Source: Thermodesulfovibrionia bacterium (GTDB lineage Bacteria; Nitrospirota; Thermodesulfovibrionia; JACRGW01). From it: a stretch of 64,000 bases of DNA. The notes beneath the pieces were generated by a model that did no database searches, had not been told where the DNA came from, and saw only the letters and a program-made list of their open reading frames with translations. Where the stretch lies: contig CAKKSD010000008.1 in assembly GCA_919902995.1 (NCBI GenBank), positions 10,922 to 74,921 on the forward strand, written 5' to 3'. This document shows positions 9,399-55,595 of this stretch, one piece after another. Each line of letters opens with the position of its first letter. Positions within the stretch are counted from its first letter, which is position 1. The translations under genes were made by a program, and so were the position numbers.

Positions 9399-9450
9399 AT
9401 TATTTAGCCTCCTATATGTTTAAGTCTTGTTAGATTATATATAACTCTTA

Positions 9451-9467: not shown

Positions 9468-9518
9468 AAATAAATAGCCTGCTGAAAAAGTCTCCTTTTA
9501 TTATAGAGTCGTCTTGTT

Positions 9519-9588: not shown

Positions 9589-9623
9589 TACTTTTTTAAA
9601 GAAATGCGAGTTGTTAAACAAGC

Positions 9624-33999: not shown

Positions 34000-34002
34000 T
34001 TT

Positions 34003-34344: not shown

Positions 34345-34510
34345 ATTTTCTTTTTCCTTTAAATAAACACTTTTGGTGTTTATTCCTGCCTATTCGGTTA
34401 GCCCTTTCGGCTTATTTATAATTTCTATCTTGCTATACCTTTAGCATAGTCCTTCGCATATTAAAATCCTGCACATATCCGTTTTATATCTTTCTTAATT
34501 CTTTCCCCTT

Positions 34511-34857: not shown

Positions 34858-35067
34858 AATATAGTTTCATAAATAACGATGAAAAAATAAAAATTACATA
34901 ATGGTTCGAAAAAGATACTCAGGCTGATAAGCTGTCGCTGAATCTTTTGGGGTATTGAATTTCTCTACATGTATCCTCATGATTGCAGGATACGAGAAAT
35001 TCTGGAGGAATACTATTACAGGATTATCCGAAGATTATCTTTGAGAACTTTAAGATTAGGATAGGTT

Positions 35068-35949
35068 TTATTTGTTCTTCTGGGGAGATTTGAAATTTAA
35101 TGCCTTTTCTATCAAGTCTAATCTTTCTTCTATATCTTTTTTAAATTTTTCAAATTGCGATTTGGTAACATATGGGTTTTTGGGAATCCTTGGGTCTGAG
35201 AGAGGAACTACCGAACCTATTACCAGTTTAAGCTGCCCTTTTGCACAGCTCTCTTTAGTTAAAATACCCCAAGTATTCCAGTCGGTTCCTTCACGGGCAT
35301 TATTATTAATCATGTTATGTGCCTTATTTAATTGATCTGAGGCGAGTGCAACACTAACAGGTCTATTTGGTGAGGATATACAATCCTGAATAGCCTGTTT
35401 TGCAGTTATCGGGATATTAATACCAAAAGATTTCTCTCCCATGGAAAGAGTTATAGTCTCCATTCCATCGTATTCTAAGTGCCAGCCCTTATTTTCACAA
35501 TCCTCAATAACAGCTCGAGAAAGATTTTTCAGTTTTCCTTGAGTGTCTGTAGAAGAGAGTTCCTTTTTGACAACATAGTGAATAACATTGCGTTTATGTC
35601 CTAAACTAATTTTAGTTCCAGTTTTAGTAACGCGGGTTAATACAATAACTTTTAGCTCTGGTCTGTTCTTTATTAAGTCTTTTGCGATTTCATCTCCCTG
35701 TTTTTTCTGCCGAGTAAATTCAATATCAAGTAATACTAATTTAATATTGTTATCCTTCTTCGCAGCATCGATTCCTTCTTCACCAAGAGTTTCAAATACT
35801 ACTTCGTAAGGAGTCAACTTATAAATGCCTTCAAGAATTTGTTTTAAGGTTGTATTTACAGAAGTATCAATTATTTGATCGGGGGTATCATCAATGCATA
35901 ATATTTTAGTTTTAGCCATTGCTATCTTCTCCCTTGATTTTGTTTTCAA
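35068..35949 (-). CDS. receiver (REC)-like domain protein with unknown C-terminal domain
   Basis: KILCIDDTPD...KLVLLDIEF...KVIVLT shows the Asp, Asp, Thr, Lys spacing of a CheY-like fold. Confidence 0.4.
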   Translation of the reverse strand: MKTKSREKIAMAKTKILCIDDTPDQIIDTSVNTTLKQILEGIYKLTPYEVVFETLGEEGIDAAKKDNNIKLVLLDIEFTRQKKQGDEIAKDLIKNRPELKVIVLTRVTKTGTKISLGHKRNVIHYVVKKELSSTDTQGKLKNLSRAVIEDCENKGWHLEYDGMETITLSMGEKSFGINIPITAKQAIQDCISSPNRPVSVALASDQLNKAHNMINNNAREGTDWNTWGILTKESCAKGQLKLVIGSVVPLSDPRIPKNPYVTKSQFEKFKKDIEERLDLIEKALNFKSPQKNK

Positions 35950-36541
35950 GCCTTTTGCCTATTCCATGTGCTATCGAAGACCAATCCTTTTCTTTTTCAA
36001 TATCTTTTGTTGTATCCTCTATTTCCTTTGTTAGCTTTTTATCCTTTAAATAATTGCCTGTCGTGTGTAATATTTCTATGCACCGTTCCTTATCTTTAAG
36101 CAAATCATGGCTTAACAGCTTTAGTAAGTATCCTTTATAACCAGAATCACTTCCGCAGATAGCTTTCCTTATAGCCTGACTGGAAATAGGAATCATATTT
36201 TTTAATAAATCAATAAACTCCTTCAGGTTAAAAGGAATCCTTATATAGGCATGATTATAAGGATGGTCATGAAATATTGGGAACTCCTTTTCAAAAGATT
36301 CCTTTTCCTTAAATCCAATTACAACAATAGGATTAAGGTGTTTTGACCTTATCGTTTCATAAAACAACTCGTGTATTCTATCTTCAGGGGTTGATATTAG
36401 TACCACTCTATTTTTTTTCTTTAAAGAGTCATTCGTAAATAGAAGCACGGTCATGCTGCCTACTGCACTTAGTGCCCTTTTAAAGGATTTATAAAGTTCT
36501 TCATTTTTAGAGATAAAAACTATTTTTTTATTACTTCTCAT
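35912..36541 (-). CDS. hypothetical protein (209 aa), possibly degenerate receiver-like
   Basis: KIVFISKNEE...VVLISTPED...PIVVIGF alternate as in a flavodoxin-like fold. Confidence 0.3.
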   Translation of the reverse strand: MRSNKKIVFISKNEELYKSFKRALSAVGSMTVLLFTNDSLKKKNRVVLISTPEDRIHELFYETIRSKHLNPIVVIGFKEKESFEKEFPIFHDHPYNHAYIRIPFNLKEFIDLLKNMIPISSQAIRKAICGSDSGYKGYLLKLLSHDLLKDKERCIEILHTTGNYLKDKKLTKEIEDTTKDIEKEKDWSSIAHGIGKRLENKIKGEDSNG

Positions 36542-36657
36542 ATATTGTCCTTCTCACTATCTCTTGTGTCCTCTAAGCTTAAATTATCTTATATCTTATA
36601 ACACAAAAGAATATCTCAGAGATATCCCTTAAATATTACCTTATGTAGAACAAATCT

Positions 36658-39384
36658 TTAAGGCTTACTCTTTGCCCTCAAATATTCTTTTGTCAGGCGG
36701 AATGAAACTTTATTGCTTTCTATTTCTACTGGTGTATACATCTCGGGCTTTAAAGTACCGAAGGGTGAATCGATACTTCCATCATCCATTTTAACTCCGA
36801 GCCACAAACCATCTTTAAATGGCGGACAGAACTTTCTCTCATCTTCTTCATGCGAAAGCCTGGACTTAATTAGATTTAAGAAAAATAGTGGAATCTGTCT
36901 TTTTATTCTATCAAGACATAATACAAAATAGAGATATCTAAAAAGATTATGAGTTTTTTTAGCTTCTGCAGTTTGCAAATTGTTTTCAAGCATAAGAAAC
37001 ATCGCTTTCTTTAAGATGTCCTTATCAGCGAGGTCACAATATTCGTCCGCAAAAGAACAATCTTGTGGGCAAGCATTGTTGCAGATAGAATGAATCATAT
37101 CTTCCACTAATTTTGGTGTAAGTTCCCATTTTGAGCAAGGGTCTTGCCAATCAGTCTCCATATCTATACCAAGGGCTTTAAAGATAGCAAGAAAGGCAAA
37201 AAGTGCATCAGTAAATCTTAGATCAACATCTGGATGCGCAGCCGAATGACGAAGCTGGAAGGCAATAAAAGGATAGATATTCTTATCTTTTGACAATTTC
37301 CCTTTTGTTAATCTGATATACATTTTTAACGGGTTATAAATTTGAGAGTTTGTATCTCCTCTTTCCCAAACCAATTCTATGATGTTGCCCAACATTATGA
37401 GGGTTCCAATAAGATAGGACGAATCCCTCTCTTTAAGATATCTTTTTAAAGAAGAATACGCTGCTTCTAACAGCAGAACCGTTTCATTCCTCTTTATCTC
37501 GCCAATTGTTGAAAATCTATTGAAAGTTTCAATACCCTTCCAAATCTTTCTTAGGGCCTTCCTCTCCTGACATGTTGTATTTTCAATCAAATTCTTAAAC
37601 TCTGTATAGTATGCCACCGCTTCATTTTCACTCTGATATTTGCTTTCTTTTTGGAAATATCCATCTATTCCTCCTTTTATTTTTTCAGCATCTTTTATAT
37701 TGAAATGTCTGGTCGTTGCAGTAAAAAGAATTACCGGAACTGCAATATCTCTTTTTCTTATTTCTCTTAAAAGACTTATGCCACTGAACTCTTTATGCAG
37801 TGGTTTACCATGAGGATACTTTTTCTTTATCTCTTCATCTTCTTTTGTAAGGTATAAATCCAGCAAAATAAGATCATAATCGGTTAATCTGCGTGTAGCT
37901 TCATTTATTCTGGAGTCATTCAATAAATCATCCCCACTTTGCCATTCTTTGCCTATTGCCTCCACTATATCATTTCCGAATAAAACCTTAATGGTCTCTT
38001 CCCATCCTGCCTTTTTTGCTTCATCATCTATAAGTAATACCTTTTTACCTCGTAATATTTCCGAAAGAGGTCTTTCCACTGATAATTTGTGCGTCTGTTC
38101 TGATAATGTCTCATCGCCTGTATCAGTTATGCCTACTGCTATAGCATCGTAAATTTCAATTTCTTCCCAAGCATTTTTATCTCTTTCTTGCAATTTTTTT
38201 AATACTCCTCTATAGCTGGCGCTATCAATATTATCAACATAATAAGCACCTTTTAGGAGTGAATAAGGGGCGGTGAAATTTCTCCATGCGTGTTGCAGAA
38301 TACCTTCTGAGGTTAAATCACAGCTTTGTTTTATATACTCTTTCAGTGTTTGAGCGGACAATGATTTATTTGCATTTTTTTGTATCATGCTCATGACGTC
38401 TATTAAGGAGAAGGGAATAGTTACAAACTCAACACCTTTTGCAAGTAATACAAAGTATCTTCTGTCTTTTTCAATAAGATCCTGGAGTCTATTTAAGGAA
38501 ATAAAAATGACTGGAGGGGGATTATTTTTATATTTGATAATCTCTGCCCAATACCTTCTTACAAAATAAATATAATCGGAGTTGACTTCAAAGTCTAAAA
38601 TAATAATAAGGGAAACATCCTTTAGTAATTTTTCAACTGCTTTTTGTGCGGAATCGATAAATGATTTACACTCCCATAAATATGAATTCTGAGATGTTGT
38701 TTGTGAAAGCTCTAAATACCTCTTACTTCTCTCCTCTATCATTTCCTGCCAATATTCCTCTAATAATACTATATGAGCTCCTTCAGGTATTTGTAATATA
38801 AGGTTCTCCATTTCTTTTACTATAGACACATATTTTTTATAAAACTCCATTAATCTCATGGCATTTTGTCTTTTTAATCTATCCTCTATTCCCTCAAGAT
38901 TATTTAGTCTGTTATTCTCTATAGCTTTTTTTTCATTTTCTAAATTTTGTTTTTTTATCACTAATAAATTAAAATTCTCTATTATTTCGGGCATTCTTAT
39001 GTTACCTTCGCTCTTTTTATATGCCCCTGCCATAATTTCCCCCAGCCTATTTATCTCCCTCCCTATTAAATCAATTTGTTCCTGCAACTGACTACATATA
39101 TCCTCTGTTAATCTTTCAAGTTCTTCGTTTATTTTCGTCTTTTTACTCTGCTCAAGTCTGTTATTTAAACTTGTTTGTAGTTCCTCTGCCTTTTTTTTAA
39201 ATTCCTGTGGTAATTCTCTAAAAGCATCTGATATTTGCCTTTGTATTTCCAATAGAACTTTACTATAAGATATGATCTGAAGATCATATTGGTTGTAAAA
39301 AAGTGAGTTTAATGCCCTTTGAAGTGATATGGAGGTTTCGTTAAGGCCATCAGAAACAATCAACACTTTCCTTTTCTTATCCAT
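36658..39384 (-). CDS. large multidomain protein (908 aa) with central REC domain and coiled-coil region
   Basis: KKVLLIDDEAKK...DLILLDLYL...PVILFTATT...GYFQK is a canonical receiver. RHSAAH near the C-terminus could be an Rx4H HEPN-like motif (speculative). Confidence 0.5.
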   Translation of the reverse strand: MDKKRKVLIVSDGLNETSISLQRALNSLFYNQYDLQIISYSKVLLEIQRQISDAFRELPQEFKKKAEELQTSLNNRLEQSKKTKINEELERLTEDICSQLQEQIDLIGREINRLGEIMAGAYKKSEGNIRMPEIIENFNLLVIKKQNLENEKKAIENNRLNNLEGIEDRLKRQNAMRLMEFYKKYVSIVKEMENLILQIPEGAHIVLLEEYWQEMIEERSKRYLELSQTTSQNSYLWECKSFIDSAQKAVEKLLKDVSLIIILDFEVNSDYIYFVRRYWAEIIKYKNNPPPVIFISLNRLQDLIEKDRRYFVLLAKGVEFVTIPFSLIDVMSMIQKNANKSLSAQTLKEYIKQSCDLTSEGILQHAWRNFTAPYSLLKGAYYVDNIDSASYRGVLKKLQERDKNAWEEIEIYDAIAVGITDTGDETLSEQTHKLSVERPLSEILRGKKVLLIDDEAKKAGWEETIKVLFGNDIVEAIGKEWQSGDDLLNDSRINEATRRLTDYDLILLDLYLTKEDEEIKKKYPHGKPLHKEFSGISLLREIRKRDIAVPVILFTATTRHFNIKDAEKIKGGIDGYFQKESKYQSENEAVAYYTEFKNLIENTTCQERKALRKIWKGIETFNRFSTIGEIKRNETVLLLEAAYSSLKRYLKERDSSYLIGTLIMLGNIIELVWERGDTNSQIYNPLKMYIRLTKGKLSKDKNIYPFIAFQLRHSAAHPDVDLRFTDALFAFLAIFKALGIDMETDWQDPCSKWELTPKLVEDMIHSICNNACPQDCSFADEYCDLADKDILKKAMFLMLENNLQTAEAKKTHNLFRYLYFVLCLDRIKRQIPLFFLNLIKSRLSHEEDERKFCPPFKDGLWLGVKMDDGSIDSPFGTLKPEMYTPVEIESNKVSFRLTKEYLRAKSKP

Positions 39385-39437
39385 CGCGGACTCCTCAACA
39401 GGAAATATCTTTATAAAATTTTATTTTTTAATTCTAT

Positions 39438-40223
39438 CTATTCATTACTTCTATAGCTTTCTCTAAGACATTCAGCAAGGGCGCAATACCAGTCGTGGAA
39501 GGAGTTAATCTCCTTGTCCTTCCAAGAATCTTTTAAAAGCCTTTTGGGATCGTTTTCTCTTTTAATAAGGTTTTGGAAAAAAACCTGAGCATCATTAATG
39601 ATGCCACTAAGCCTATTTTTATCTATTCCCTCGATTTCCGACAGTTCTTTTATCTTCGATTGTAATATTCCAAATTTATCATAATAATCAGTATTGTCAT
39701 TATACATTTGGTTTAAGTAATCTCCTTTTTTATTTTCTTCCAAAAGTTCCAATGCCTGCATGTCTATGTCGAGAGGGAGGAAGAGGTGGAGGAGATAGGT
39801 TGTAATCTCTGACAGTTTTTCTTTAGATCTCCACGAGTCTCGCAAGCTTACTATTGTATTTACATTCCAATTACCCTCATTACATTTCTCTTTTACATAA
39901 CTACCTACACCGCAGATGTCAAACCATTTACATTGTCGAGCAATATTAATAAATTCTGAAGCCTCGGATTTGCCTATTTTAAGGACAAGTCCTGAAGGAA
40001 ATTTGCTATTTATAGCAGTAATTTTTTCTTTCAGCTCTGAGCTGTCTATACCAGAGGCAGATAGATGCCATAACAGAACTATATTTTTAGGGTCGCTTGA
40101 AGACTTTAAGAATGATTCAATCGTATCAAAATGCGATCTTAATTTTTGAGGAAATTTCCCTTCCCCAAAAAAATCATTGAAAAAACTCTCTTTCTCAACT
40201 GTTATAAAGGTATAATTAGACAT
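39438..40223 (-). CDS. hypothetical protein (261 aa)
   Basis: ORF in a tight operon. No family recognised. Confidence 0.35.
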   Translation of the reverse strand: MSNYTFITVEKESFFNDFFGEGKFPQKLRSHFDTIESFLKSSSDPKNIVLLWHLSASGIDSSELKEKITAINSKFPSGLVLKIGKSEASEFINIARQCKWFDICGVGSYVKEKCNEGNWNVNTIVSLRDSWRSKEKLSEITTYLLHLFLPLDIDMQALELLEENKKGDYLNQMYNDNTDYYDKFGILQSKIKELSEIEGIDKNRLSGIINDAQVFFQNLIKRENDPKRLLKDSWKDKEINSFHDWYCALAECLRESYRSNE

Positions 40224-40226
40224 ATT

Positions 40227-42098
40227 TTACCTCCACATCAAAGGGAACTTTATTTCATAAGTAACAGAAGATTCTGAATTTTTTAAGTCTTTTTCTTCGT
40301 ACATGTCTTTTTTTACTGTAATCTCTTTGTTTTTTTCCCTAAACACTATTGATAAATCTGAAAGATCATCTCTGAAGCGATCCATTATCCACTGAATAAT
40401 ATAATGTCCAAGCCCTGTTAACTTAGTCCAGTTTATATCCTCACCGTTCAGATATCTATGAATATCTTTAGGAGTAACTTTACGCTGGCCTTCAGAAAAT
40501 CCAAATTTAAAATTTTTACCCTTTTGAATATATGTCAATTTATTGGCTATAAATGAAATATCTGTATATTGTATATTTGCATCTTCGTAATTTTGAAAAG
40601 TGTTTTTTATCAGGTTGTATAGAATACATTCAACTGCTGGCAAATAAATATATCTCTCTGGGGGGATATCCATTTTAGGGAGTTCGATATTATCCTTTTG
40701 TCGATTTTTTCTATATACGTCATTAAATATTTTCCATATTTGAATTATTTCATCTTTAAGATGGACATCTGTTAAAGGATCTTTATCATCGGTTATCTTT
40801 TCACCGAACAGTTTAACCATAAGCTTAGTTCTCCTATCAATTACTCCTTTTATGAAATCTATGTTTTCAATACTTATATCGCTCATAAGTCTTGTAGTAT
40901 CATGTCCGTAACCCTTATGGAATTGTATATTCTTTTCTGTGATTTTTATTAAGCCAAGAACATCATCAATTGCTAACTCTATTCCTTTTGAATACATTTC
41001 CAGTATGTTTTCTTCAAAATCAAAATATAAAATAAAAGCTATATCTTCTTTCTTGATATACAAACCACTTTTCGGTTTTAAGTATTTATCGGTGTTATGA
41101 ATATTACATATTTCACCTAAAGATATTATTTTAATTGAAGCATTCCCATAACTGAAATTATTACATATTACACATGATATTTCTTTCCATTCAGGAAACA
41201 ATTTAGAACCATCCTGCTTATCAAACGATAGGCGTCTAAATATATTGTCTTTTTCTCTCATACATGCACCAGTAATATTAAATAAGATTGGTAGTCTTAT
41301 AAAGACAGTTTTCAAAACGTCAAAGCCATTGCTCGGAAGGTCTTGAAGAACTACTGATAAGAATTCAAATTCCTTTGCATCTTTGATTGAAGTAATACCT
41401 AATTCTTTTACTAATTGTAAAAACCGTAGATAATCATAGGGGGTAAATTTCTCTTCTGTCTCTGCGACAAAAGCAATCCCTGCTATTTGACCATATAAAG
41501 GAATATGAGACATTATTGCACTTTTTATTTTAAGCCCTTCCCAGAAGAACCCTTCTAAAGTGTTAATTATAGATGTAAATGAAATTTGTTTATTAGCTAA
41601 TATTAAGTCATTTTCAATATATTCTTCTGCACCACTATACTTATTAAATTGCCCTTCATTATAAAAAAACCTTGGAACTCTCGTATGAAATGTTTGCCCT
41701 GTTACTCCGTAATGGCGACTTATCGGGGTGTTTAACAATAAGTCCACGAAAATATCAATTAAATTATTTTTATCACCATTTGCGTTTTTAGGTAAGCTGT
41801 TATTTAAAAAAGCTTTAGTGTTTTCATTTGATACCTCTTCATACCACCTTTTTATTTCTTTGTCAGAATTAATTACTTCCTTTGCTTTATTTAAAGCCTC
41901 AGTTAATCTTTTTAGATCCACATTATTAGAGCGGATATATTCTTTAAAGTATTCCCTGCCATAATAATGAAAGCATTGGGTTTTAGATTTTAAAAGTATT
42001 ATAAATGGAGGTGTTTTCAAATAGAACTCGTCTTGAAATCTCTTTGCTATTTCTGTCAGAGTACTATCTATATCTTTTTTACTGCCCATCTCTTGCAT
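40227..42098 (-). CDS. hypothetical protein (623 aa) with possible C-terminal histidine-kinase-like ATPase
   Basis: Candidate H-box GYGHDTTRLMSDI, N-box-like ILYNLIKNTFQ and G2-like LTGLGHYIIQWIMDRF about 100 aa apart. Weak. Confidence 0.35.
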   Translation of the reverse strand: MQEMGSKKDIDSTLTEIAKRFQDEFYLKTPPFIILLKSKTQCFHYYGREYFKEYIRSNNVDLKRLTEALNKAKEVINSDKEIKRWYEEVSNENTKAFLNNSLPKNANGDKNNLIDIFVDLLLNTPISRHYGVTGQTFHTRVPRFFYNEGQFNKYSGAEEYIENDLILANKQISFTSIINTLEGFFWEGLKIKSAIMSHIPLYGQIAGIAFVAETEEKFTPYDYLRFLQLVKELGITSIKDAKEFEFLSVVLQDLPSNGFDVLKTVFIRLPILFNITGACMREKDNIFRRLSFDKQDGSKLFPEWKEISCVICNNFSYGNASIKIISLGEICNIHNTDKYLKPKSGLYIKKEDIAFILYFDFEENILEMYSKGIELAIDDVLGLIKITEKNIQFHKGYGHDTTRLMSDISIENIDFIKGVIDRRTKLMVKLFGEKITDDKDPLTDVHLKDEIIQIWKIFNDVYRKNRQKDNIELPKMDIPPERYIYLPAVECILYNLIKNTFQNYEDANIQYTDISFIANKLTYIQKGKNFKFGFSEGQRKVTPKDIHRYLNGEDINWTKLTGLGHYIIQWIMDRFRDDLSDLSIVFREKNKEITVKKDMYEEKDLKNSESSVTYEIKFPLMWR

Positions 42099-42721
42099 AA
42101 TTTTTCACCAGTCTTATTTAAAGGCCCTAAACCATTTTCGCCACATGCTTTCTCTCGATCATCTGTAAAAAAACAATCGTGTTGCTCATTCGATAAAAAT
42201 AACTCTCTAGCAGTTTGTTGCAAAAAACAAGCTGTAACATGACGAGATATATATTCTTTAATATCCTCAATATCCTCTATAGGCTGAAGTCTTGAAAATA
42301 AGAGGAATGAACCAATTTCTTTCTTGGAACAGTAGCCACGCTCCTTATCAATTTTTTGAAAACAGCCTACTACCTTAATTGGGATATTGAGGCAACTTTT
42401 GGCTACACTGATATGAGGAATGCTGTCTTTCAGTTCTTTGCAGGATTCGCAATGTTCACGATTTAGCCACCATGAATTTTTTGAGGTTTTTAGAAGTCTT
42501 TTTAAATCATTTTTTTGCTTTTCTAATAAACAACTTGTAGCTATTATATCTTCTTCTATATAGGCAGCACCTAACGTAAGATCAAAAAGAGGTTGGAAAT
42601 ATTGTAAGAAAATTCGGAAAAGGTCATTACTGGGATATATCGAAACTAAATCAGCATAAATATATGAAAAGATTACATCGATATCTGTCTTATCTCTTGG
42701 TGCATCAGGCAAAAGAGACAT
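42068..42721 (-). CDS. hypothetical Cys-rich protein (217 aa)
   Basis: HCESCKELK...CLNIPIKVVGC...CSKK Cys pattern. Confidence 0.3.
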   Translation of the reverse strand: MSLLPDAPRDKTDIDVIFSYIYADLVSIYPSNDLFRIFLQYFQPLFDLTLGAAYIEEDIIATSCLLEKQKNDLKRLLKTSKNSWWLNREHCESCKELKDSIPHISVAKSCLNIPIKVVGCFQKIDKERGYCSKKEIGSFLLFSRLQPIEDIEDIKEYISRHVTACFLQQTARELFLSNEQHDCFFTDDREKACGENGLGPLNKTGEKLCKRWAVKKI

Positions 42722-42739
42722 ATCATTCCCCTAATTGAT

Positions 42740-43789
42740 TCATCTCCAGCAGGCTGGATCAGAAGCAAAGACATCACCAGTCATTGCAAAGGTTCTGCAC
42801 CTGCATCCAAAACATTCACCTTTCAATGCACAACTGCCGCATTTCCCTTTTAAATTGTCCTCCATGTTTCTAACATTTCGTAAAAAGTCGCTATTCCATA
42901 TTTTCTTTAAAGACTGTTTACGAATATTGCCTGCATTTATAAATATACTATAACATGGCCTTACATCGCCCTGAATACCAACAACCATATTCACATATAC
43001 AAGTTGACATTGTGAAGCAACAAAAGGTGGTCGTGGTTCCCATGTGTACCCAAATTCAGATTCATCGATCTCAAGCAGTTTATAAGTCAAATCTCTAAAT
43101 TGCTCGTTAGTTATATCGAGGTCTTTTCCCTTTGCCCTCCCCGAAAGGAATACTCTACAAATATATGGAAATATATTGTTTCTTCTTGCAAAGCGAAAAA
43201 TCTCGGATGCTTCTCTGACAGTTTCCTTAACTATAAAAGAGTCTATAGCAATTCTTGTGGGATTTACTTTATTAAAGCCGGCATCCATCAGGTTATGAAT
43301 CCCCTGCATCATCTTTTCATAAGCCCAGGGAACACCACCACATAGTTTGTTTTGCACCTCAGGCCTCATGCTATTCAGAGTAGCCACAACTGTCACAGGA
43401 CTTTCATATAAAATCTTCGCAGTGCTTTTGTCAATCAATGATGCGTTTGAATAAAGTATGAGATACAAACCTCTTTCTTCAATTAATTTGAGGATCTTAA
43501 AGAAATTGGGATCAAGAAGAGGTTCTCCAGCGCCAGCGATGGCTACCTCTCTTGCACCGAGTTCTACTGCCTGGTCAAGTATACTCTTATATTCATCGAG
43601 TGTTAATTCATTAGCTAGTTTTTTCCCTGCATCCGTATAACAATAAATGCATCTAAGGTTACATATATTGCTGGTTTCTATGCTAATGACAAGCATTCTG
43701 TTTTGTGCCCTCGCCTTTTTAATTTCTTCGAAGGAGAAATCAAGTCCTTTAAGTTTAGGAGGGCTGCTTAATGCTATAATAGTTTTCAT
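42740..43789 (-). CDS. radical SAM enzyme with C-terminal SPASM/twitch domain
   Basis: CNLRCIYCY (CxxxCxxC) at the N-terminus. C-terminal CGSCALKGECFGCRCRTFAMTGDVFASDPAC is typical of SPASM auxiliary clusters. Confidence 0.7.
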   Translation of the reverse strand: MKTIIALSSPPKLKGLDFSFEEIKKARAQNRMLVISIETSNICNLRCIYCYTDAGKKLANELTLDEYKSILDQAVELGAREVAIAGAGEPLLDPNFFKILKLIEERGLYLILYSNASLIDKSTAKILYESPVTVVATLNSMRPEVQNKLCGGVPWAYEKMMQGIHNLMDAGFNKVNPTRIAIDSFIVKETVREASEIFRFARRNNIFPYICRVFLSGRAKGKDLDITNEQFRDLTYKLLEIDESEFGYTWEPRPPFVASQCQLVYVNMVVGIQGDVRPCYSIFINAGNIRKQSLKKIWNSDFLRNVRNMEDNLKGKCGSCALKGECFGCRCRTFAMTGDVFASDPACWR

Positions 43790-44574
43790 ATCTTTGTCCC
43801 TCTAAGGATATTGATATCCTTAGATTCATTCTCCAATTGCATTTTCTTAATGTTTTCGAAACCCGCATTTTTAAAGGCCCTTAATAAATCATCTTCAAAA
43901 ACGAAATACCCATCTATTGTTACCAATTTATGAGAAATGCTATTACTCTCCCTATCGAAAAAGACAAAAAAGATATTATATGTCCTTGAGTTCTCTTTGT
44001 AATCTAAAATATAAAAGCTTACAATATCTTTTGAGCCAAATTGTAAATGTGCTCGGTGCTCAAATAGAGGTTTTTCCTGGATTACTGCTTCATAGTTTCT
44101 TATATCAATATAGCAAAGTCCGCCTTTCTTTAAAAGAGTGCCCATATTTTTAATTGCTATCTCAAAATCATTAGGTTCGATATGAGAAAAAGAATTGCCC
44201 CTGCAAATTACTGCATCAAATTTCTCCTTAATATTCGATGATAAATCAAGAATATTTGTTTGAAAGAAATTTATATTTTTTATTCCTGCTCTGATAGCAT
44301 TAGAGATTGATCTCTCTATCATTTTGCCGCTTATATCAGAACCAGTAACCTCATATCCAAGCTTTGCAAGTTCAATGATCATATGGCCGGTTCCGCATGA
44401 GCAATCCAAGATTTTCTGAATACCTAAAGGTTTCAAAAGTTTCAAATCAAGTTCTTGGGCTATTTTTTTATTTATCCCTTCAATATCAGTATAGAGAAAG
44501 TGATAATATTCAGACAGTTCATCGTATAGTATCTCTACTTGCTGATATGATGACGTTTCTAATTGTAGTTTCAT
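43786..44574 (-). CDS. class I SAM-dependent methyltransferase
   Basis: Motif I ILDCSCGTGHMIIELAKLG, followed by D-acidic and CRGNSFSHI motifs. Confidence 0.7.
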   Translation of the reverse strand: MKLQLETSSYQQVEILYDELSEYYHFLYTDIEGINKKIAQELDLKLLKPLGIQKILDCSCGTGHMIIELAKLGYEVTGSDISGKMIERSISNAIRAGIKNINFFQTNILDLSSNIKEKFDAVICRGNSFSHIEPNDFEIAIKNMGTLLKKGGLCYIDIRNYEAVIQEKPLFEHRAHLQFGSKDIVSFYILDYKENSRTYNIFFVFFDRESNSISHKLVTIDGYFVFEDDLLRAFKNAGFENIKKMQLENESKDINILRGTKI

Positions 44575-49135: not shown

Positions 49136-49648
49136 ATGAGTAAACTTCCAGGGCAAAGGGTGGCTATCTTAATTGATGGGCAAAACATTTATCTGTCCGC
49201 AAAGGCAAGAGGTGCTAAACCAGATTATAACAAAATCATGAATGCAGTGAATGGCAGAGAAATTGTCAGGGCGATTATCTACAATATCCTGCTAGATGGG
49301 GTTGACCAGAGCAAGTTTGTCTACGCAATGGAGAGCATGGGTTATGAGGTCAGATCGAAACGGCCACGCACACTTCCAGACGGCTCTTTCAAAGCAGACT
49401 GGGATATGCAAATTGCCATTGATGCTATTGCCCTTGCTGATAAGGTCGATGTCATGGTTATCCTAACCGGGGATACAGACTTTGTACCACTCGTCCATGC
49501 CTTAAAGTCTAAAGGCGTTAAGGTCGAAGTAATGTCATTCCGCGAGACAACAGGGAAAGAGCTAATCGAAGCCGCTGATGTCTATATAGAAATAACTGAT
49601 GATATGTTGATACACGAAAACCGGCCATGTGCAAGTTCTTACAAATAG
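49136..49648 (+). CDS. NYN-domain (LabA-like) protein
   Basis: VAILIDGQNIY ... VMVILTGDTDFVPLV conserved Asp motifs of NYN/LabA ribonuclease-like proteins. SD aaaggagga. Confidence 0.65.
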   Translation: MSKLPGQRVAILIDGQNIYLSAKARGAKPDYNKIMNAVNGREIVRAIIYNILLDGVDQSKFVYAMESMGYEVRSKRPRTLPDGSFKADWDMQIAIDAIALADKVDVMVILTGDTDFVPLVHALKSKGVKVEVMSFRETTGKELIEAADVYIEITDDMLIHENRPCASSYK

Positions 49649-49657
49649 AATACCTGT

Positions 49658-49686
49658 AGAAAAAATGAAGTTGATTCATTTTTTTC
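49658..49686. terminator. AT-rich hairpin gaaaaaatgaa-gttgat-tcatttttttc downstream of the NYN gene
   Basis: 9-bp stem followed by a T run. Immediately abuts the first cassette repeat. Confidence 0.35.
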
Positions 49687-49740
49687 TCTTCTTTATCAAT
49701 GTCAACAGATCATTTAACTGGTGGTTGTCGATGAGTCGCA
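49686..49740. repeat. cassette-boundary repeat R1 (divergent copy)
   Basis: tcttctttatcaatgtcaacagatcatttaactggtggttgtcgatgagtcg, compared with the consensus TTCTCCTTTATCAATGTCAATAAATCATTCGGCTGGCGGTTGTCGATGACTCGTAGAGAAGTA. Confidence 0.55.
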
Positions 49741-49767
49741 TCTAAATAAAGTGTCTCAAAGGTTTTT

Positions 49768-50169
49768 TTACTTAAATATCTCTTCAAAATCTTTGGGCTT
49801 TATAATTTTTGTATTATGAAATGGATTTAAAGCAAGGAGATCTTCATCTCCTGTAACGAGATGATCAGCTTTTCCCTCCAATGCTACTTCAAGCAGAAAA
49901 TTATCCTTTTCATCCCTGCAGGCATTAACCTTCTGGCTTGGCGAAACTACTATTGCATAACCATCAAGAAGTGAAAATAGCTCCTTGATTCTCCTGGAAG
50001 TAAAAATATTCTTAAATTTTGGGCGGCTTGATACTTCACTAAGCTCTTTCAACATCTCATCTGATAAGACAACTTTTATCTCTTTTGAAAGTATCTTTTC
50101 ATCTATGCCCTGTAAAAGGCTTCCGAGCAAGTAACTGATCCATATATTGGTATCAATTACGACTTTCAT
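49768..50169 (-). CDS. PIN-domain toxin (VapC-like)
   Basis: MKVVIDTNIWISYL start with conserved Asp. 133 aa. Overlaps the antitoxin gene. Confidence 0.6.
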   Translation of the reverse strand: MKVVIDTNIWISYLLGSLLQGIDEKILSKEIKVVLSDEMLKELSEVSSRPKFKNIFTSRRIKELFSLLDGYAIVVSPSQKVNACRDEKDNFLLEVALEGKADHLVTGDEDLLALNPFHNTKIIKPKDFEEIFK

Positions 50170-50398
50170 ATCGTTCTTGTCTTACAGCCTCTACCTCTTT
50201 GGTGATCTCCTCTATTGTTATAGGATATTTTCTTGCAGACTCTCTAAACTCCTTTAAAAGACTTTTAAATCTCGTAGCAAAAAGTTCTTCTTCCAACATT
50301 GTCAATACTTTTATTTTCATTTCTACTGGCAAATTCTTTACAGTCTTTTTAATTTTATTTAAGTCTGCATTCGAAATTGTTTTTAACATTACCAACAC
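50153..50398 (-). CDS. putative antitoxin partner of the PIN toxin (81 aa)
   Basis: Small upstream overlapping ORF. An identical copy exists at 51592..51837. Confidence 0.45.
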   Translation of the reverse strand: MLVMLKTISNADLNKIKKTVKNLPVEMKIKVLTMLEEELFATRFKSLLKEFRESARKYPITIEEITKEVEAVRQERYESRN

Positions 50399-50554
50399 CT
50401 CCTTAGTCCTCTTGTATTGTTTTTTATATTGGGATTTCCGTATCTATAATATGGGTCATAACTTATTCTTGAAAAGAGTATTCATATTTTTTGATTTCTT
50501 CTAAAGTTTCCTATATATATTCTATGTGTTCTTACCCATTTATACAATATTTAT

Positions 50555-50603
50555 TTTTCTTTTATAAGTGTCAATAAATCATTCGGCTGGCGGTTGTCGA
50601 TGA
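50555..50603. repeat. cassette-boundary repeat R2
   Basis: ttttcttttataagtgtcaataaatcattcggctggcggttgtcgatga. Confidence 0.6.
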
Positions 50604-50646
50604 TTAGTATAGCAGATGAGCGTGCAGGTACACTTTTGTAAAACCT

Positions 50647-50994
50647 TTATAAAGGCAAGAATTCTACTCTATTAGCCAAATCTTCAGGTTCTCCGGATTG
50701 TGCAATTATTTCTAAGTCCTTGATGCAGGCTCCAATTGAAATGTTTAAAGGAGATGTATAAATTACTCCCGAAAATGGAATTGATAACCTTTGCCTTTTT
50801 GCAGCCTCTACCAATAAATCATCATCAAAAGTAAAAAGCACACGATTTAATACAGTCGCACGCTCTAACAATTCAGAATCGGAAAGTTTATCAGCATTGT
50901 CTTCTTGCGCTGTAAGAAGATCAATTCCTCGTAACCGGAGTCCATTTGTAACAGCCTTTGGTATATGGGCATCCATATAAAGCTTAATAGCCAC
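50647..50994 (-). CDS. DUF5615-family PIN-like toxin
   Basis: MAIKLYMDAHIPKAVTNGLRLRGIDLL. Paralogous to 23044..23409. Confidence 0.5.
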   Translation of the reverse strand: MAIKLYMDAHIPKAVTNGLRLRGIDLLTAQEDNADKLSDSELLERATVLNRVLFTFDDDLLVEAAKRQRLSIPFSGVIYTSPLNISIGACIKDLEIIAQSGEPEDLANRVEFLPL

Positions 50995-51311
50995 TACAAT
51001 AACCCAGAGGCCTTTAATCTTTCTTTCAAGGGAGATTTTTCAGGGGCTTTATATTGCATAATACCCTTCAGGCGTTGCTCAATATCTTTATTAAGTTTCT
51101 CTTCATTGTCATAATAATAGGCCAGCGCCGAATGGATCTGCCCCAAGGTCAAATAAGGGTGCTGTAGATGTAATTCCTCAGGACTCCACCCATACGCTAC
51201 CTTTTCGGCCACAAGTTCAACCACCTTCATGGTAGTGCCTGCAATAAAAGGAATCCCTTTCTCGTCAATAGTAATATGCTCATATTTAGTTTCTACTGAA
51301 TGCATATGCAC
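50994..51311 (-). CDS. DUF433-family antitoxin
   Basis: ITIDEKGIPFIAGTTMKVVELVAEKVAYGWSPEELHLQHPYLTLGQIHSALAYYYDNEE. Paralogous to 23406..23645. Confidence 0.5.
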   Translation of the reverse strand: MHMHSVETKYEHITIDEKGIPFIAGTTMKVVELVAEKVAYGWSPEELHLQHPYLTLGQIHSALAYYYDNEEKLNKDIEQRLKGIMQYKAPEKSPLKERLKASGLL

Positions 51312-51382
51312 CTCCCTATTATTGCTTAATTATACCATAGATAGTGAAATAGCTCTTTATTATTTTTAATGCGATGAAAATT

Positions 51383-51468
51383 TCTTCTTTTATCAATGTC
51401 GCCAATAAATCATTCGGCTGGCGGATGTCGATGACTCATTTACGACCCGTAGGATAGAGAAGTAGCAC
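51383..51468. repeat. cassette-boundary repeat R3 (long form with a 20-nt insert)
   Basis: ttcttcttttatcaatgtcgccaataaatcattcggctggcggatgtcgatgactcatttacgacccgtaggatagagaagtagcac. Confidence 0.6.
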
Positions 51469-51480
51469 TTTTCTTTTCAA

Positions 51481-51530
51481 TCAATGCCTTTAAGTTGTTA
51501 TGAGCATCGGGTTGGTGGTTCTAATTAAAG
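51481..51530. repeat. degenerate cassette-boundary repeat R3b
   Basis: caatgcctttaagttgttatgagcatcgggttggtggttctaattaaagtg aligns with R1 caatgtcaacagatcatttaactggtggttgtcgatgagtcgcatctaaataaagtg. Confidence 0.4.
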
Positions 51531-51540
51531 TGTCTTAAAG

Positions 51541-51606
51541 GTTTTTTACTTAAATATCTCTTCAAAATCTTTGGGCCTTATAATTTTGGTATCAATTACG
51601 ACTTTC
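51541..51606 (-). pseudogene. vapC (PIN) remnant with internal deletion
   Basis: Only the 3' end (ttacttaaatatctcttcaaaatctttggg.cttataatttt) and the start-codon region (gtatcaattacgactttcat) of the 49768..50169 PIN gene remain, fused together. Confidence 0.55.
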
Positions 51607-51837
51607 ATATCGTTCTTGTCTTACAGCCTCTACCTCTTTGGTGATCTCCTCTATTGTTATAGGATATTTTCTTGCAGACTCTCTAAACTCCTTTAAAAGA
51701 CTTTTAAATCTCGTAGCAAAAAGTTCTTCTTCCAACATTGTCAATACTTTTATTTTCATTTCTACTGGCAAATTCTTTACAGTCTTTTTAATTTTATTTA
51801 AGTCTGCATTCGAAATTGTTTTTAACATTACCAACAC
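51592..51837 (-). CDS. putative antitoxin, exact duplicate of 50153..50398, now orphaned
   Basis: Identical 81-aa translation in the ORF track. The upstream leader is also duplicated. Confidence 0.45.
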   Translation of the reverse strand: MLVMLKTISNADLNKIKKTVKNLPVEMKIKVLTMLEEELFATRFKSLLKEFRESARKYPITIEEITKEVEAVRQERYESRN

Positions 51838-52004
51838 CTCCTTAGTCCTCTTGTATTGTTTTTTATATTGGGATTTCCGTTCTGTAGCTTTATCAATACC
51901 TCTTTCATTAGAATCTACCTCCTTCTTCTGTAAGAATATTTCTTAACAATTTTAGGATTCCTATACATATTCTATGTGTTCTTACCCATTTATACAGTAT
52001 TTAT

Positions 52005-52070
52005 TTTTCTTTTATAAGTGTCAATAATTCATTCGGCTGGCAGTTGTCGATGACTCGTAGAGAAGTATAT
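52005..52070. repeat. cassette-boundary repeat R4
   Basis: ttttcttttataagtgtcaataattcattcggctggcagttgtcgatgactcgtagagaagtatatgag. Confidence 0.6.
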
Positions 52071-52145
52071 GAGTAGTCTCTCAAGACTCTTCCTTTTGAA
52101 ATTTTCGTTTTTAAATCGTTGCTGACCTATTTGAGATACAACCAG

Positions 52146-52355
52146 TTAATGGGCCAGTGTCTTGGTATGAATGATTTTTAGACCCAGTGCTTTAACTGTA
52201 TCCTCAGTAGCCTTGCGAGTTTTTTCAATAAGTTCTCTTGGAGAGAGATTTTTTGTTTCGTTGTAGTCTTCTTCTCGGACCTTGTGAATCCATTCCAAAG
52301 ATTTATATCTCCATTTCTTCATATTCAACCACCTCCTCTGGTGATATAATCTCAA
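52146..52355 (-). CDS. small basic protein (69 aa), probable partner of the upstream PIN protein
   Basis: Overlaps the PIN gene's 3' end. No family recognised. Confidence 0.3.
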   Translation of the reverse strand: MRLYHQRRWLNMKKWRYKSLEWIHKVREEDYNETKNLSPRELIEKTRKATEDTVKALGLKIIHTKTLAH

Positions 52356-52806
52356 TAGGCTTATAGCCCATCCTTAAATTGATACTATTAATCACTCTCC
52401 GCACGGTTATATTCACCATATGCCTGTAATTCCAGGAGACAATGAAATCAACTTCATGGTATACGCCGATTGCAATATGTCTGGCATCATTGCGATACTT
52501 AGCAGGAATAACCTCATCATTTACATAGACGTCTGATAACTCAATACATTCCTCGGTCTCTTCAAGTATCTTTAATCCCGCTTCAGTAATCGCACTCTTT
52601 AATTTTTCCTGTATTTCATGGGGAGCCTTCAAAATCTCCTCTAAGGTAAGAAAAGAAATAAATCCTTCATAAAGTCCATCTTTGATTAATCTGATAAGGC
52701 TCTCTGCTTTTTTTATTCTTTCAGCATCCGCTATATCAAAAAGCCCACCAAGAACTGATGTATCTATATACAGACTTGCCTTTTTCATCCATCCTTCTTT
52801 TCTCAT
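52303..52806 (-). CDS. PIN-domain protein (VapC-like)
   Basis: ASLYIDTSVLGG...YRNDARHIAIGVYHEVDFIVSWN shows PIN acidic residues. Confidence 0.5.
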   Translation of the reverse strand: MRKEGWMKKASLYIDTSVLGGLFDIADAERIKKAESLIRLIKDGLYEGFISFLTLEEILKAPHEIQEKLKSAITEAGLKILEETEECIELSDVYVNDEVIPAKYRNDARHIAIGVYHEVDFIVSWNYRHMVNITVRRVINSINLRMGYKPIEIISPEEVVEYEEMEI

Positions 52807-52949
52807 CTCTTCTTATCTCTACGACATGAGATAAGAGGGTAAAGTATTTTTGAATTAGTATACCCCAAAATAAGATAAGGTAAAAGCAAAAAAATCAGAA
52901 TAATAATATCGAATATGAGAAATAAAGGAGTTTGACATGCTCAGGACTT

Positions 52950-53013
52950 TTTCCCCTCTATCAATGTCAATAAATCATTTGGCTGGCGGTTGTCGATGAC
53001 TCGTAGAGAAGTA
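52950..53013. repeat. cassette-boundary repeat R5
   Basis: ttcccctctatcaatgtcaataaatcatttggctggcggttgtcgatgactcgtagagaagta. Confidence 0.6.
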
Positions 53014-53071
53014 AATAAGCAGTTTTCAAGATCTTTCCTGATGCTTCAATCCACCAGTGCATAGATATCAA

Positions 53072-53302
53072 TTAGTTTCTTCTATACGCTTGATCGTGAG
53101 GACCTAAATCAATAAACTTTATAGTATCGTCTGAACATTTATTGCAATCACTGCAGAGGACTATCTCACTATCGCCTTTTTTGCGGCATACCCTGCAGTA
53201 TAAGTAAATGATTAGAAAATTCTTTTGTATCGGGCAACTATAGTATCCCCTTAAATTTCCCTTCAATGGCTCACCCAGGGCAATAGGGTTTTCTATAATC
53301 AT
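53072..53302 (-). CDS. RelE/ParE-like toxin with C-terminal zinc-ribbon-like Cys motif
   Basis: LKGNLRGYYSCPIQKNFLIIYLY matches the RelE core (L.G.L.G.Y..RI...YRIIY), followed by CRVC...CSDCNKC. Confidence 0.35.
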   Translation of the reverse strand: MIIENPIALGEPLKGNLRGYYSCPIQKNFLIIYLYCRVCRKKGDSEIVLCSDCNKCSDDTIKFIDLGPHDQAYRRN

Positions 53303-53384
53303 ATCTACCTTCTTCTTGATGAACTTTTTTATTGAGCTGTATTTTTTAGTGAATCTTTAAAGGCATCGCTAAAGAGAACCTCCA

Positions 53385-53645
53385 TCAAAAGACCTCTTTA
53401 TACCTGAACCATTTCACCTTACCAGATCTTATTCTCGAAATAGTTTGAAGCAGGCTTTCCCTGAAATCTGGATCTGAAAGGATTACCTCGGTTGGGTTAC
53501 TTTCTATTGTACGTTTTAGGTTAAGAAGAAACTGCGTGATGATCTCTGAAACTGAAGTTCTCTGTTGCTCTGCATAAGTTTTGGCATAGTCTATCAGGTC
53601 TTTGTCCAATGTAATGTTTATTTTACCCTTCTGCATCAAAATCAC
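53385..53645 (-). CDS. putative antitoxin (86 aa) upstream of the RelE-like gene
   Basis: Position and size only. Confidence 0.3.
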   Translation of the reverse strand: MILMQKGKINITLDKDLIDYAKTYAEQQRTSVSEIITQFLLNLKRTIESNPTEVILSDPDFRESLLQTISRIRSGKVKWFRYKEVF

Positions 53646-53841
53646 CTCCTTATGCTTATAATATACGCCTGTTATACATCTTTGTCAATATCTCTCGAGC
53701 ATCCTCAGCACCCAAATCTTTGGCGTTAACCCTGGGGTTTACAACTCTCTTGGATGCCCACTATATTCTTGCCAACTCAGGTTATCAAATTTAATCAGAC
53801 ATTTCGGGAGCTTTCAAAAATAGGAAGTATACGAAATTCAT

Positions 53842-53925
53842 TTCTCCTTTATCAATGTCAATAAATCATTCGGCTGGCAGTTGTCGATGACTCGTCTGCG
53901 ACCTGTAGGGGAGAGAAGTAGAGGA
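53842..53925. repeat. cassette-boundary repeat R6 (long form)
   Basis: tttctcctttatcaatgtcaataaatcattcggctggcagttgtcgatgactcgtctgcgacctgtaggggagagaagtagagg. Confidence 0.6.
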
Positions 53926-53939
53926 ATGTTCTGAAAATT

Positions 53940-55595
53940 CTACACCTCAATTATCAGAGGCAGGATCATTGGTTTTCTGTCCATCTTCTTGAGTATATAT
54001 TTTCTGAGGGTACTCTTTACACCTGCCTGAACAAGGGGCCATTCGGACTTTATCTCTTTACCCATAGACTCGAGGGCCGTTATTACGACTTCCTTAACCT
54101 CTGTAAGGAGTTCCTGGGAGGCATCCTCAAAGACAAATCCCCTTGAGATTATATCGGGTCCGGTAACGACCTTTCCAGTTAGTTTTTCGATTCCAATGAT
54201 AACGATCACTACACCGTCATGGGCGAGTCTCAGTCTGTCCCTGAGGACGACATCTCCAACATCCCCTATACCCTTTCCATCTATAAATGCCCTTCCTGCG
54301 GCTACCCTTCCGGCCCTCCAGGCCCCATCCTTACCGAACTCCACAACATCTCCGTCCTCGAGGATAAATATATTCTCAGGCTGAACCCCTGTCTTTTCTG
54401 CAAGCCTTGAATGATAGAAGAGATGCCTGTATTCACCGTGGATGGGGATAAAATACTTAGGCCTGACTATACTGAGCATGAGCTTCAGTTCTTCTTTGGA
54501 TGCATGTCCTGAAACATGGATCTCCGAGACCTTTTCGTATATAACATCTGCACCCCTTTTTAAAAGGTGGTTTATTACCCTCGCTATTGCCCGTTCATTG
54601 CCGGGAATCATCTTGGCAGAGAGGACTACCGTATCACCTTTCTTGATCCTGATATGTTTATGCTCATCCATAGCTATTCTTGAAAGGACAGAAAGGGGTT
54701 CCCCCTGGCTTCCTGTCGTTATAAACACGGTCTCATTTTCAGAAAGTCTCTTCATCTCATCCATCCTGAGCCATGTCCCTTTGGGTATCTTGAGGTAGCC
54801 GAGCTCTAAGGCTATCTGGGCATTAGAGATCATGCTTTTACCATTAAGGATTACCTTCCTTCTGAACATGGCGGCCACATCAATGATCTGCTGTATCCTG
54901 TGTATATTTGATGAGAATGTGGCGACAATAATTCTTCCCTCAGCCTTTGAGAAGATATCTTCTAAGGCCCTTCGCACCTCCTTCTCTGAAAAGGTATACC
55001 CTCCTTTTTCCGAGTTGGTACTGTCGGAAAGAAAAAGAAGCGTCCCCTTATCCCCGTACTCAGAAAATTTATGGAAATCCATCAGCTCCCCATCGACAGG
55101 TGTTGGGTCGAGTTTAAAATCCCCGGTGTGGACGATCCTCCCTACCGGTGTGGTTATTCCGAGGCCGACGCCATCTACAATACTATGGGTGACCCGCATG
55201 AATTCTACAGTGAAATCCCCGAGATGGATTATATCCCTCGGCCTGACAGGGTTGAGTTCGATACCCTCGAGACGATGCTCCTTTAATTTCTCCTTCACGA
55301 GACCGAGGGTAAGAAGGGTACCGTATACTGGGACACTTATCTGTCTGAGGAGGTACGGAAGGGCACCTGTATGGTCCTCATGTCCATGGGTAAGGATTAT
55401 TCCCCTTATCTTTTCCTTGTTATCGAGGAGGTAGGAGAAATCGGGGATAACCATATCTACCCCGAGCATATCCTCTTCAGGGAACATCTGGCCTGAATCA
55501 ATAACTATGATGTCATCCCCGTATTCCATCACCATCATGTTCAGGCCGATCTCACCAAGACCTCCTAAGGGGATGATAGAAAGTGTGTCGTTCAT
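53940..55595 (-). CDS. rnj: ribonuclease J (metallo-beta-lactamase/beta-CASP)
   Basis: HGHEDHTGALPYL metallo-beta-lactamase motif, beta-CASP region, 551 aa. Confidence 0.85.
   Translation of the reverse strand: MNDTLSIIPLGGLGEIGLNMMVMEYGDDIIVIDSGQMFPEEDMLGVDMVIPDFSYLLDNKEKIRGIILTHGHEDHTGALPYLLRQISVPVYGTLLTLGLVKEKLKEHRLEGIELNPVRPRDIIHLGDFTVEFMRVTHSIVDGVGLGITTPVGRIVHTGDFKLDPTPVDGELMDFHKFSEYGDKGTLLFLSDSTNSEKGGYTFSEKEVRRALEDIFSKAEGRIIVATFSSNIHRIQQIIDVAAMFRRKVILNGKSMISNAQIALELGYLKIPKGTWLRMDEMKRLSENETVFITTGSQGEPLSVLSRIAMDEHKHIRIKKGDTVVLSAKMIPGNERAIARVINHLLKRGADVIYEKVSEIHVSGHASKEELKLMLSIVRPKYFIPIHGEYRHLFYHSRLAEKTGVQPENIFILEDGDVVEFGKDGAWRAGRVAAGRAFIDGKGIGDVGDVVLRDRLRLAHDGVVIVIIGIEKLTGKVVTGPDIISRGFVFEDASQELLTEVKEVVITALESMGKEIKSEWPLVQAGVKSTLRKYILKKMDRKPMILPLIIEV

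Follow-up and report, generated by a model that had tools for sequence, protein, structure and literature searches.

Integrons, recognised by their folded attC sites, are to our knowledge the one well-described system in which promoterless or self-expressed gene cassettes are stacked at a dedicated site. Small modules also move through Xer-type sites of 28 bp, in which a 6-bp spacer separates the 11-bp XerC and XerD arms; integrative mobile elements exploiting Xer (IMEX) use dif, and pdif modules of Acinetobacter plasmids, many with toxin–antitoxin (TA) genes, are moved by a recombinase encoded elsewhere. Clusters of attC sites lacking an integrase (CALINs) are defined by two or more sites within a few kilobases, co-oriented and each following a cassette (PMC4889954), and integrative elements are documented to accumulate in tandem and then to decay, leaving integrase-less elements between attL and attR (PMC5704250). 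Here we describe an array of TA cassettes, and the repeat that separates them, in a 64-kb stretch (hereafter the window) of a groundwater Nitrospirota chromosome (contig CAKKSD010000008.1). The homologues of its RNase J assign the window to uncultured Nitrospirota. The interval between rnj and an NYN-domain gene consists of five two-gene type II TA units, all on the minus strand. We propose, tentatively and as a possibility rather than a probability, that the repeats are att-type sites recombined as duplex DNA by a recombinase encoded outside the window. The initial annotation of this DNA had read the array as CALIN-type and held a distinct recombination site in reserve; that reserve is the reading we favour.

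Including its terminal repeats, the array spans window positions 49682–53923. Gene calls and domain matches confirm the annotated five co-oriented TA modules between rnj and the NYN and liv genes, with the contents listed there: DUF6364 plus RelE/ParE-like, PIN_3-like plus a small open reading frame (ORF), VapB15-like plus deleted PIN, DUF433 plus DUF5615, and VapB15-like plus PIN. The six repeat copies (c1 to c6 in window order, c6 beginning 16 nt past the rnj stop codon) are 70–86 nt long and all direct; one lies at each of the four internal boundaries and one at each array end, with start-to-start spacings of 619–946 nt, the arrangement by which a CALIN cluster is defined (PMC4889954). The orientation first reported for the copies holds, and their number is six, not seven: a 27-nt core matched five times at three or fewer mismatches, as against 0 matches in 100 shuffles, and a relaxed nhmmer search returned no seventh or partial copy in the 64-kb window. 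There are indeed short and long forms, with an insert in the long form (c3 and c6) of 16 nt rather than 20; the supposed imperfect palindrome, with mirrored termini, amounts to two 4–5-bp pyrimidine/purine complementary patches lacking a folding signal.

Comparison of alleles in the window and in related contigs (denoted here by L numbers) reveals a bipartite repeat. In gene direction, a 45–65-nt left part, composed of TACTTCTCT, an optional 16 nt resembling CCCTACRGGTCGYAG, and ACGAGTCATCGACAACYGCCAGCCGAATGATTTATTGAC, begins 16–77 nt past the stop codon of the upstream operon, and a right part of ~15 nt, ATTGATAAAGGAG-like, opens the next cassette and goes with it. The distance from the right part to the next start codon ranges from 35 to ~195 nt; in c1 the right part lies next to the convergent NYN gene, at its 3' end, and faces no gene. 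Two different copies from separate samples, c4 (L040, ~398–439) and c5 (L043, ~1818–1862), lack the same 16 nt (TCTACGAGTCATCGAC), a deletion that could be recurrent, templated or an assembly artefact.

Genes identical to those of the window occur in Hainich groundwater assemblies and in several other runs, and the assemblies of the same species display three array architectures that diverge at repeats; the absence of strain-to-strain cassette variation, which would have counted against the initial proposal, is thus not what we observe. Type A is that of the window, where the NYN gene forms the distal flank, and of L030. Type B (L028, L029 and L044) is identical through c2 and then continues into csx3 and a Cas6-like gene; it is independently present in an NCBI metagenome-assembled genome contig, an ENA contig and a JGI contig. 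Type C, present in 8 separate Logan run assemblies, has rnj through cassette 3 in common with the window and is missing cassette 4. Assemblies that contain this lineage include GCA_038068675.1, ENA ERZ1292634, ERZ1292639 and ERZ1292641, JGI 3300045072, and runs SRR22387816, SRR22387921, SRR22387928, SRR22387975, SRR22388050, SRR22388108, SRR22388158, SRR22388322 and SRR16110236.

These architectures locate a switch point within the repeat. The left part of c2 is identical in types A (window, L030) and B (L028, L029, L044), and divergence starts at the base after ...TTATTGAC, with ACTTATAAAAG and a VapB cassette in type A versus TTTGATAAAGG and csx3 in type B. Within the window, c2 and c4 precede paralogous VapB cassettes and have a common right part, ACTTATAAAAG...; their left parts differ, the last difference falling 9 nt ahead of the seam. 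The two comparisons combined narrow the seam to 8 nt, the octamer TTATTGAC. A 3-nt insertion in c3, located at TTATT^GAC, and the array end in type C strains, where the last repeat halts after TTATT and unrelated DNA follows, both fall at this switch point. The switch lies near the 3' end of the site and leaves most of its length to the upstream cassette, as expected of an integron, with the left part sometimes uncoupled. The octamer lies at an apparent short dyad, TTAT-N8-ATARA, in 5/6 copies, and direct AWYGAY and ACGRGTC motifs, read by eye, are found to its left; these direct repeats could be accessory binding sites.

Several further observations support att-type sites. Every boundary, including both array ends, carries exactly one direct copy, with none elsewhere in the 64 kb; the TA families of the cassettes are mutually unrelated in domain searches; and the G+C content of the array (0.34–0.37) is lower than that of the flanking core genes (0.42–0.46). 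Sister species, whose RNase J is 87–90% identical, have neither the array nor the repeat after rnj. The repeat is also separable from its flanking genes. In type B, csx3 and the Cas6-like gene (AF_1859_N) start 35 nt past the repeat (L028, 1090–1695; L044, 2606–3078; L029, 1025–1170), and in relatives csx3 and cas6 are internal to type III CRISPR-Cas operons with RT-Cas1/Cas2 (RT, reverse transcriptase), where the upstream sequence is unrelated; the right part that precedes csx3 in type B is therefore repeat-derived. The exact type B Csx3 was found solely on contigs of 3 kb or less. Likewise, a DUF2281-PemK module in another organism, related to the one that follows the last repeat in type C (85% at the amino acid level), is free of the repeat.

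To evaluate the integron assignment, we tested the defining features of attC sites as given in PMC4889954. Such sites have a conserved R'' box (RYYYAAC) at the 5' end and R' box (GTTRRRY) at the 3' end, and their single strand forms an imperfect hairpin whose stem joins both ends, with R and L boxes, extrahelical bases and a variable terminal structure. Neither strand of window positions 49600–54000 holds an RYYYAAC...GTTRRRY (R''...R') pair 50–160 nt apart. The bottom-strand folding recommended in the initial annotation was performed on both strands: as single-stranded DNA, the six copies fold with −2.5 to −9.4 kcal/mol (z from −0.83 to +0.99), indistinguishable from shuffles, as against an end-to-end fold of −18.3 kcal/mol (z −4.7) for the control attC_aadA7. 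RNAalifold of the eight distinct alleles yields only a local 8–10-bp hairpin (TCATCG...CGAATGA), with 0 compensatory pairs and no covariation. With no R''/R' pair, folds equal to shuffles and no covariation, the attC/CALIN identity is not supported on the features tested; what stands of the earlier description is a co-oriented, TA-only array with one conserved repeat per boundary and no integrase in view. The array is integron-like in its bookkeeping and fails the attC membership features tested.

A true integron array, in which divergent attC sites are recombined as folded single strands by an IntI integrase encoded elsewhere, would agree with the co-oriented cassettes, the site 3' of each operon, the binding of most of the site to the upstream cassette, and a switch near the 3' end next to TT; chromosomal integrons typically carry TA cassettes, and Nitrospirota are among the reported hosts of integrons (PMC9668308; PMC4889954). 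We nevertheless consider it highly improbable, since, beyond the missing boxes and the shuffle-like folds, the consensus structure is local and the mapped switch falls at the position of a putative inner (L') box, not in the outer R' box. The window contains no IntI integrase, and no integrase-bearing variant of the array appears among ~30 related contigs. Sedentary chromosomal integrons and CALINs resemble the locus in their small, co-oriented cassettes, one homogeneous repeat after each, an asymmetric split of the site, TA-rich and strain-variable content, and the lack of an adjacent integrase. They differ in that the repeat described here has no R''/R' boxes, L boxes or end-to-end hairpin, so extrahelical bases are undefinable; the conserved-gene end carries the same repeat instead of attI; and every unit is a two-gene operon, some with their own promoter-like sites.

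Turning to the att-type reading itself, a series of observations weighs against it. Pfam scans of unrecognised ORFs and reading of the translations revealed no recombinase in the 64-kb window, and the related contigs likewise showed none. GTDB species representatives gave 18 single hits without flank similarity, attributable to chance, and so no copy of the repeat; matches in IMG/VR and in plasmids and phages numbered 0; the JGI contig set returned 2 chance hits, a weak negative because this incomplete collection failed to yield L044 too, a contig known to be positive. All contigs agree in the three rnj-proximal cassettes, and variation is limited to the rnj-distal end; empty sites, circular junctions and re-ordered cassettes were not observed. 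The apparent dyad at the switch point is short and AT-rich. Furthermore, types A and C are 0.2–0.4% apart from rnj to cassette 3, yet the c3 left part differs between them by 9–12% and an 11-nt indel (window 51404–51467 versus L037/L042/L043, which are otherwise 99.6–99.8% identical across the array), a pattern that looks like conversion or replacement confined to the repeat. Similarly, the paralogous VapB cassettes are 93–100% identical, while the left parts that follow them (c1 and c3) are ~70% alike by manual alignment count. Neither a simple integron-like model nor an attP/attB one predicts such an uncoupled left part, which points to gene conversion among copies of the repeat, perhaps including some elsewhere in the genome, and requires either this additional conversion or a different mechanism. 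In L037, the 3' part of rnj (436–1319, versus window 53940–54824) carries 3.7% single-nucleotide polymorphisms next to an array that is 99.6–99.8% identical to that of the window, which would suggest a recombination import ending near the rnj/array border.

The same observations bear on an alternative in which the repeat is a portable homology or intergenic module and no dedicated recombinase exists: the present variation would stem from RecA-dependent homologous recombination, conversion, duplication and deletion, acting both among the copies and among paralogous cassettes, possibly after DNA uptake from other strains. Its left part is semi-independent, being uncoupled from the upstream cassette when types A and C, or cassettes 1 and 3, are compared, and from the downstream one at c2, a pattern that repeat-confined conversion tracts would fit; a 298-nt tract that is 100% identical between the paralogous VapB cassettes 3 and 5 attests to ongoing conversion or duplication; the remaining strain differences are plain, toxin-removing deletions that end outside the repeats (window 53022–53279 and 52343–52689); and the failure to find a recombinase agrees with it as well. 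On the other hand, homology alone leaves unexplained how a single position in the repeat came to adjoin five unrelated TA modules as well as csx3, and why the 3-nt insertion and the array end occur at the very same point. A crossover between present-day c2 and c4 copies that produces the A-versus-B exchange at c2 would have to fall in the final 8 nt that they share, probably too short a stretch for RecA-type recombination. We therefore regard this alternative as unlikely, while taking it seriously.

Beyond its last repeat, type C carries DUF2281 and a truncated MazF/PemK fused to the 3' end of CYTH, followed by a PAS/GAF and Hpre block; relative to type C, the window holds an extra 27 kb (22419–49685) between the array and CYTH. 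In the contigs compared (L036–L041), the truncated MazF/PemK is joined in frame to the last ~17 CYTH codons (window ~22374–22418), and this in-frame fusion marks a deletion. The extra ~27 kb encodes lipoproteins, radical SAM genes, an AAA ATPase, a ClpP-like protein, large response-regulator-like proteins, the liv ABC transporter (its permease genes lying beyond the NYN gene on the distal flank of the array) and NYN. A DUF2281 search for an undeleted relative of the type C end returned type C contigs or unrelated contexts only.

The position after rnj raises a further alternative, that of a graveyard of integrative elements produced by tandem accretion and resembling cis-mobilizable elements (CIMEs). 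Integrase-bearing islands, phages, or integrative and conjugative or mobilizable elements would have inserted at an attB after rnj, each later decaying to a terminal TA module between att sites. Direct repeats do surround each unit, the first (c6) abutting the 3' end of a conserved gene; island ends often hold TA modules; accretion followed by decay has a documented precedent (PMC5704250); and sister species vary in what follows rnj, namely a GAF gene, an SNF2 helicase or nothing, and then Hpre_diP_synt_I, NusG_II, ApbE and UvrA. Sister species in which the GAF-Hpre block directly follows rnj are among them, and no unoccupied attB was found in sister species. This history appears improbable to us, because it must yield five clean TA operons of 0.6–0.95 kb in one orientation with no integrase, transfer or phage debris, five independent decays to an identical minimal form are unlikely, and no strain was seen with a larger element at any repeat, the csx3-cas6 junction excepted. 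Compared with ICESt1-type accretion and CIMEs (PMC5704250), the array is alike in having direct att repeats right after a housekeeping gene and units without their own integrase, which would depend on an integrase in trans or in cis; it is unlike them in that its units are single TA operons in which nothing of integration or transfer genes remains, a partner element with an integrase was not seen, and the variation lies far from the target gene.

Other identities were tried, and most of them rejected. For a dif/Xer site, the best matches (12–16 of 28) equal the window background (mean 13.8), and ATAA-N6-TTAT occurs in no copy; the GC skew only tracks gene orientation. The array resembles the Xer-dependent IMEX and pdif modules in having small, often TA, modules between short recombination sites with the recombinase elsewhere, and differs in that its repeat matches dif at background level only, without the ATAA-N6-TTAT core; its copies are all direct, whereas pdif sites alternate in orientation, and they measure 70–86 nt versus 28 bp. 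Palindrome-associated elements of the IS200/IS605 type have subterminal imperfect hairpins at the two ends of each unit, but here each repeat has one weak local hairpin, in the left part, and the ~15 nt that open each cassette have none. Miniature inverted-repeat transposable elements or repetitive extragenic palindromes would have terminal inverted repeats and lie scattered, in either orientation, among unrelated intergenic regions; within the 64 kb, all six copies are in one array and one orientation. A plus-strand micro-ORF (MSINHSAGGCR*) tolerates the c3 insertion in frame, but its start codon is AAG in the L028/L029/L044 copy. ARAGORN found no tRNA or tmRNA fragment, and Rfam (without an attC family) no known RNA at the gathering threshold, a chance mir-320 match appearing at E<1 only. 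No terminator-like site lies in the array (0 found), and the sole CRISPR-like repeat in the csx3-cas6 loci of relatives (one pair, L048) is unrelated to ours.

A shared promoter or operator, the other fallback of the initial annotation, fares no better. The array has 15 promoter-like sites versus 15.9 expected, and the TTGACA of the repeat pairs with a −10-like hexamer in some copies only. The idea is weakened by the wide range of start-codon distances, by c1 facing no gene, by better promoter-like sites inside some cassettes and by the repeat-free DUF2281-PemK homologue; nor does any copy lie elsewhere in the window.

Based on these comparisons, we propose that small, self-contained TA cassettes accumulated one after another just downstream of rnj. 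In this mechanism, the left part of each repeat would close the upstream cassette and the right part would open the next, such that excision of a cassette would yield a 0.6–0.95-kb circle that carries a single complete site. That site and a resident copy would be paired as duplex DNA, with strand exchange inside TTATTGAC, by a recombinase whose gene lies outside the window and which is most likely of the tyrosine type, a serine type also being possible. The anatomy of the repeat, its switch point, the strain variation and the lack of attC features are observed, whereas the recombinase, its action on duplex rather than folded strands and the circular intermediates are inferred. The csx3-cas6 block would have been inserted likewise in some strains, and gene conversion, deletion and rearrangement may have shaped the array afterwards. 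Some cassettes would be expressed without an array promoter, because promoter-like sites lie near antitoxin starts; in cassette 1, TTGACA-17-TATATT at 53688–53660 lies inside the cassette.

The array is now largely sedentary and decaying, as its toxins are frameshifted (RelE) or removed by plain deletions in strains. The RelE-like toxin of cassette 1 was correctly identified in the initial annotation, which missed its frameshift in the window; it is full-length at 104 aa in L037/L042/L043 and deleted (53022–53279) in L002/L036/L038. In cassette 2, the PIN_3-like protein is called as 161 aa from 52788 and the small ORF as 58–69 aa, and the bulk of the PIN gene (52343–52689) is deleted in L002/L037/L039/L041. 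The PIN toxin of cassette 5 is intact. Coordinates are collected in Table 1.

Table 1. Features of the TA array and its flanks, in window coordinates and in gene order from rnj
Feature	Position	Strand	Details
rnj (RNase J)	53940–55595	−	conserved gene, rnj-proximal array end
Repeat c6	53838–53923	−	long form; switch-point octamer GTCAATAA (+ strand) at 53857–53864
Cassette 1 antitoxin	53385–53645	−	DUF6364; 83 aa, 53385–53636, as called in other assemblies
Cassette 1 toxin	53072–53385	−	RelE/StbE-ParE-like; frameshifted in window, 76-aa ORF 53072–53302
Repeat c5	52948–53015	−	short form; octamer at 52966–52973
Cassette 2	52146–52806	−	weak PIN_3-like protein 52303–52806, overlapping small ORF 52146–52355
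Repeat c4	52001–52069	−	short form; octamer at 52020–52027; right part same as that of c2
Cassette 3	51520–51837	−	VapB15-like antitoxin 51592–51837; deleted-PIN remnant 51520–51591
Repeat c3	51382–51467	−	long form; 3-nt insertion at switch point, GTCGCCAATAA, 51398–51408
Cassette 4	50647–51311	−	DUF433 antitoxin-like 50994–51311; DUF5615 PIN-like toxin 50647–50994
Repeat c2	50551–50621	−	octamer at 50570–50577
Cassette 5	49768–50398	−	VapB15-like antitoxin 50153–50398; PIN toxin 49768–50169 (TIGR00305, PIN_3)
Repeat c1	49682–49751	−	most divergent, 5'-truncated; octamer variant GTCAACAG at 49701–49708
NYN-domain gene	49136–49648	+	convergent with array; distal flank in type A strain

Elsewhere in the window, a second DUF433/DUF5615 pair (79 aa and 121 aa; 23044–23645, minus strand) lies beside CYTH in the array orientation and without a repeat copy. 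Positions 2741–10604 (G+C 0.35–0.38) encode a PIN gene, an AIG2-like cyclotransferase, two Pfam-less ORFs (437 and 346 aa), a PD-(D/E)XK/Cas4-like nuclease and a WYL-WCX regulator, and are a possible defence or mobile island. Positions 34000–44000 (G+C 0.30–0.36) encode large proteins (908, 623, 261, 293 and 209 aa) with no Pfam hit or weak receiver-domain hits and look like acquired DNA.

A broader interpretation, which we put forward as doubtful, is that the locus represents cassette capture of a non-integron kind, in which a dedicated recombinase acting on a linear, unfolded 70–86-bp site stacks promoter-bearing addiction or defence cassettes downstream of rnj; larger modules may also be movable, such as the csx3-cas6(-RT-cas1-cas2) block found behind the repeat in some strains. 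If the repeat is a homology patch only, the locus reduces to a TA island of the ordinary kind whose intergenic repeat is unusual. If the capture interpretation is true, the pairing of integron-like bookkeeping with a site that is unfolded and conserved in sequence would point to more than one origin of cassette stacking, and IntegronFinder-type searches may miss such arrays. There would then be an undescribed recombinase–site pair to find, possibly useful as a tool, and the array would offer a tractable case of TA module accumulation and decay in an uncultured Nitrospirota lineage.

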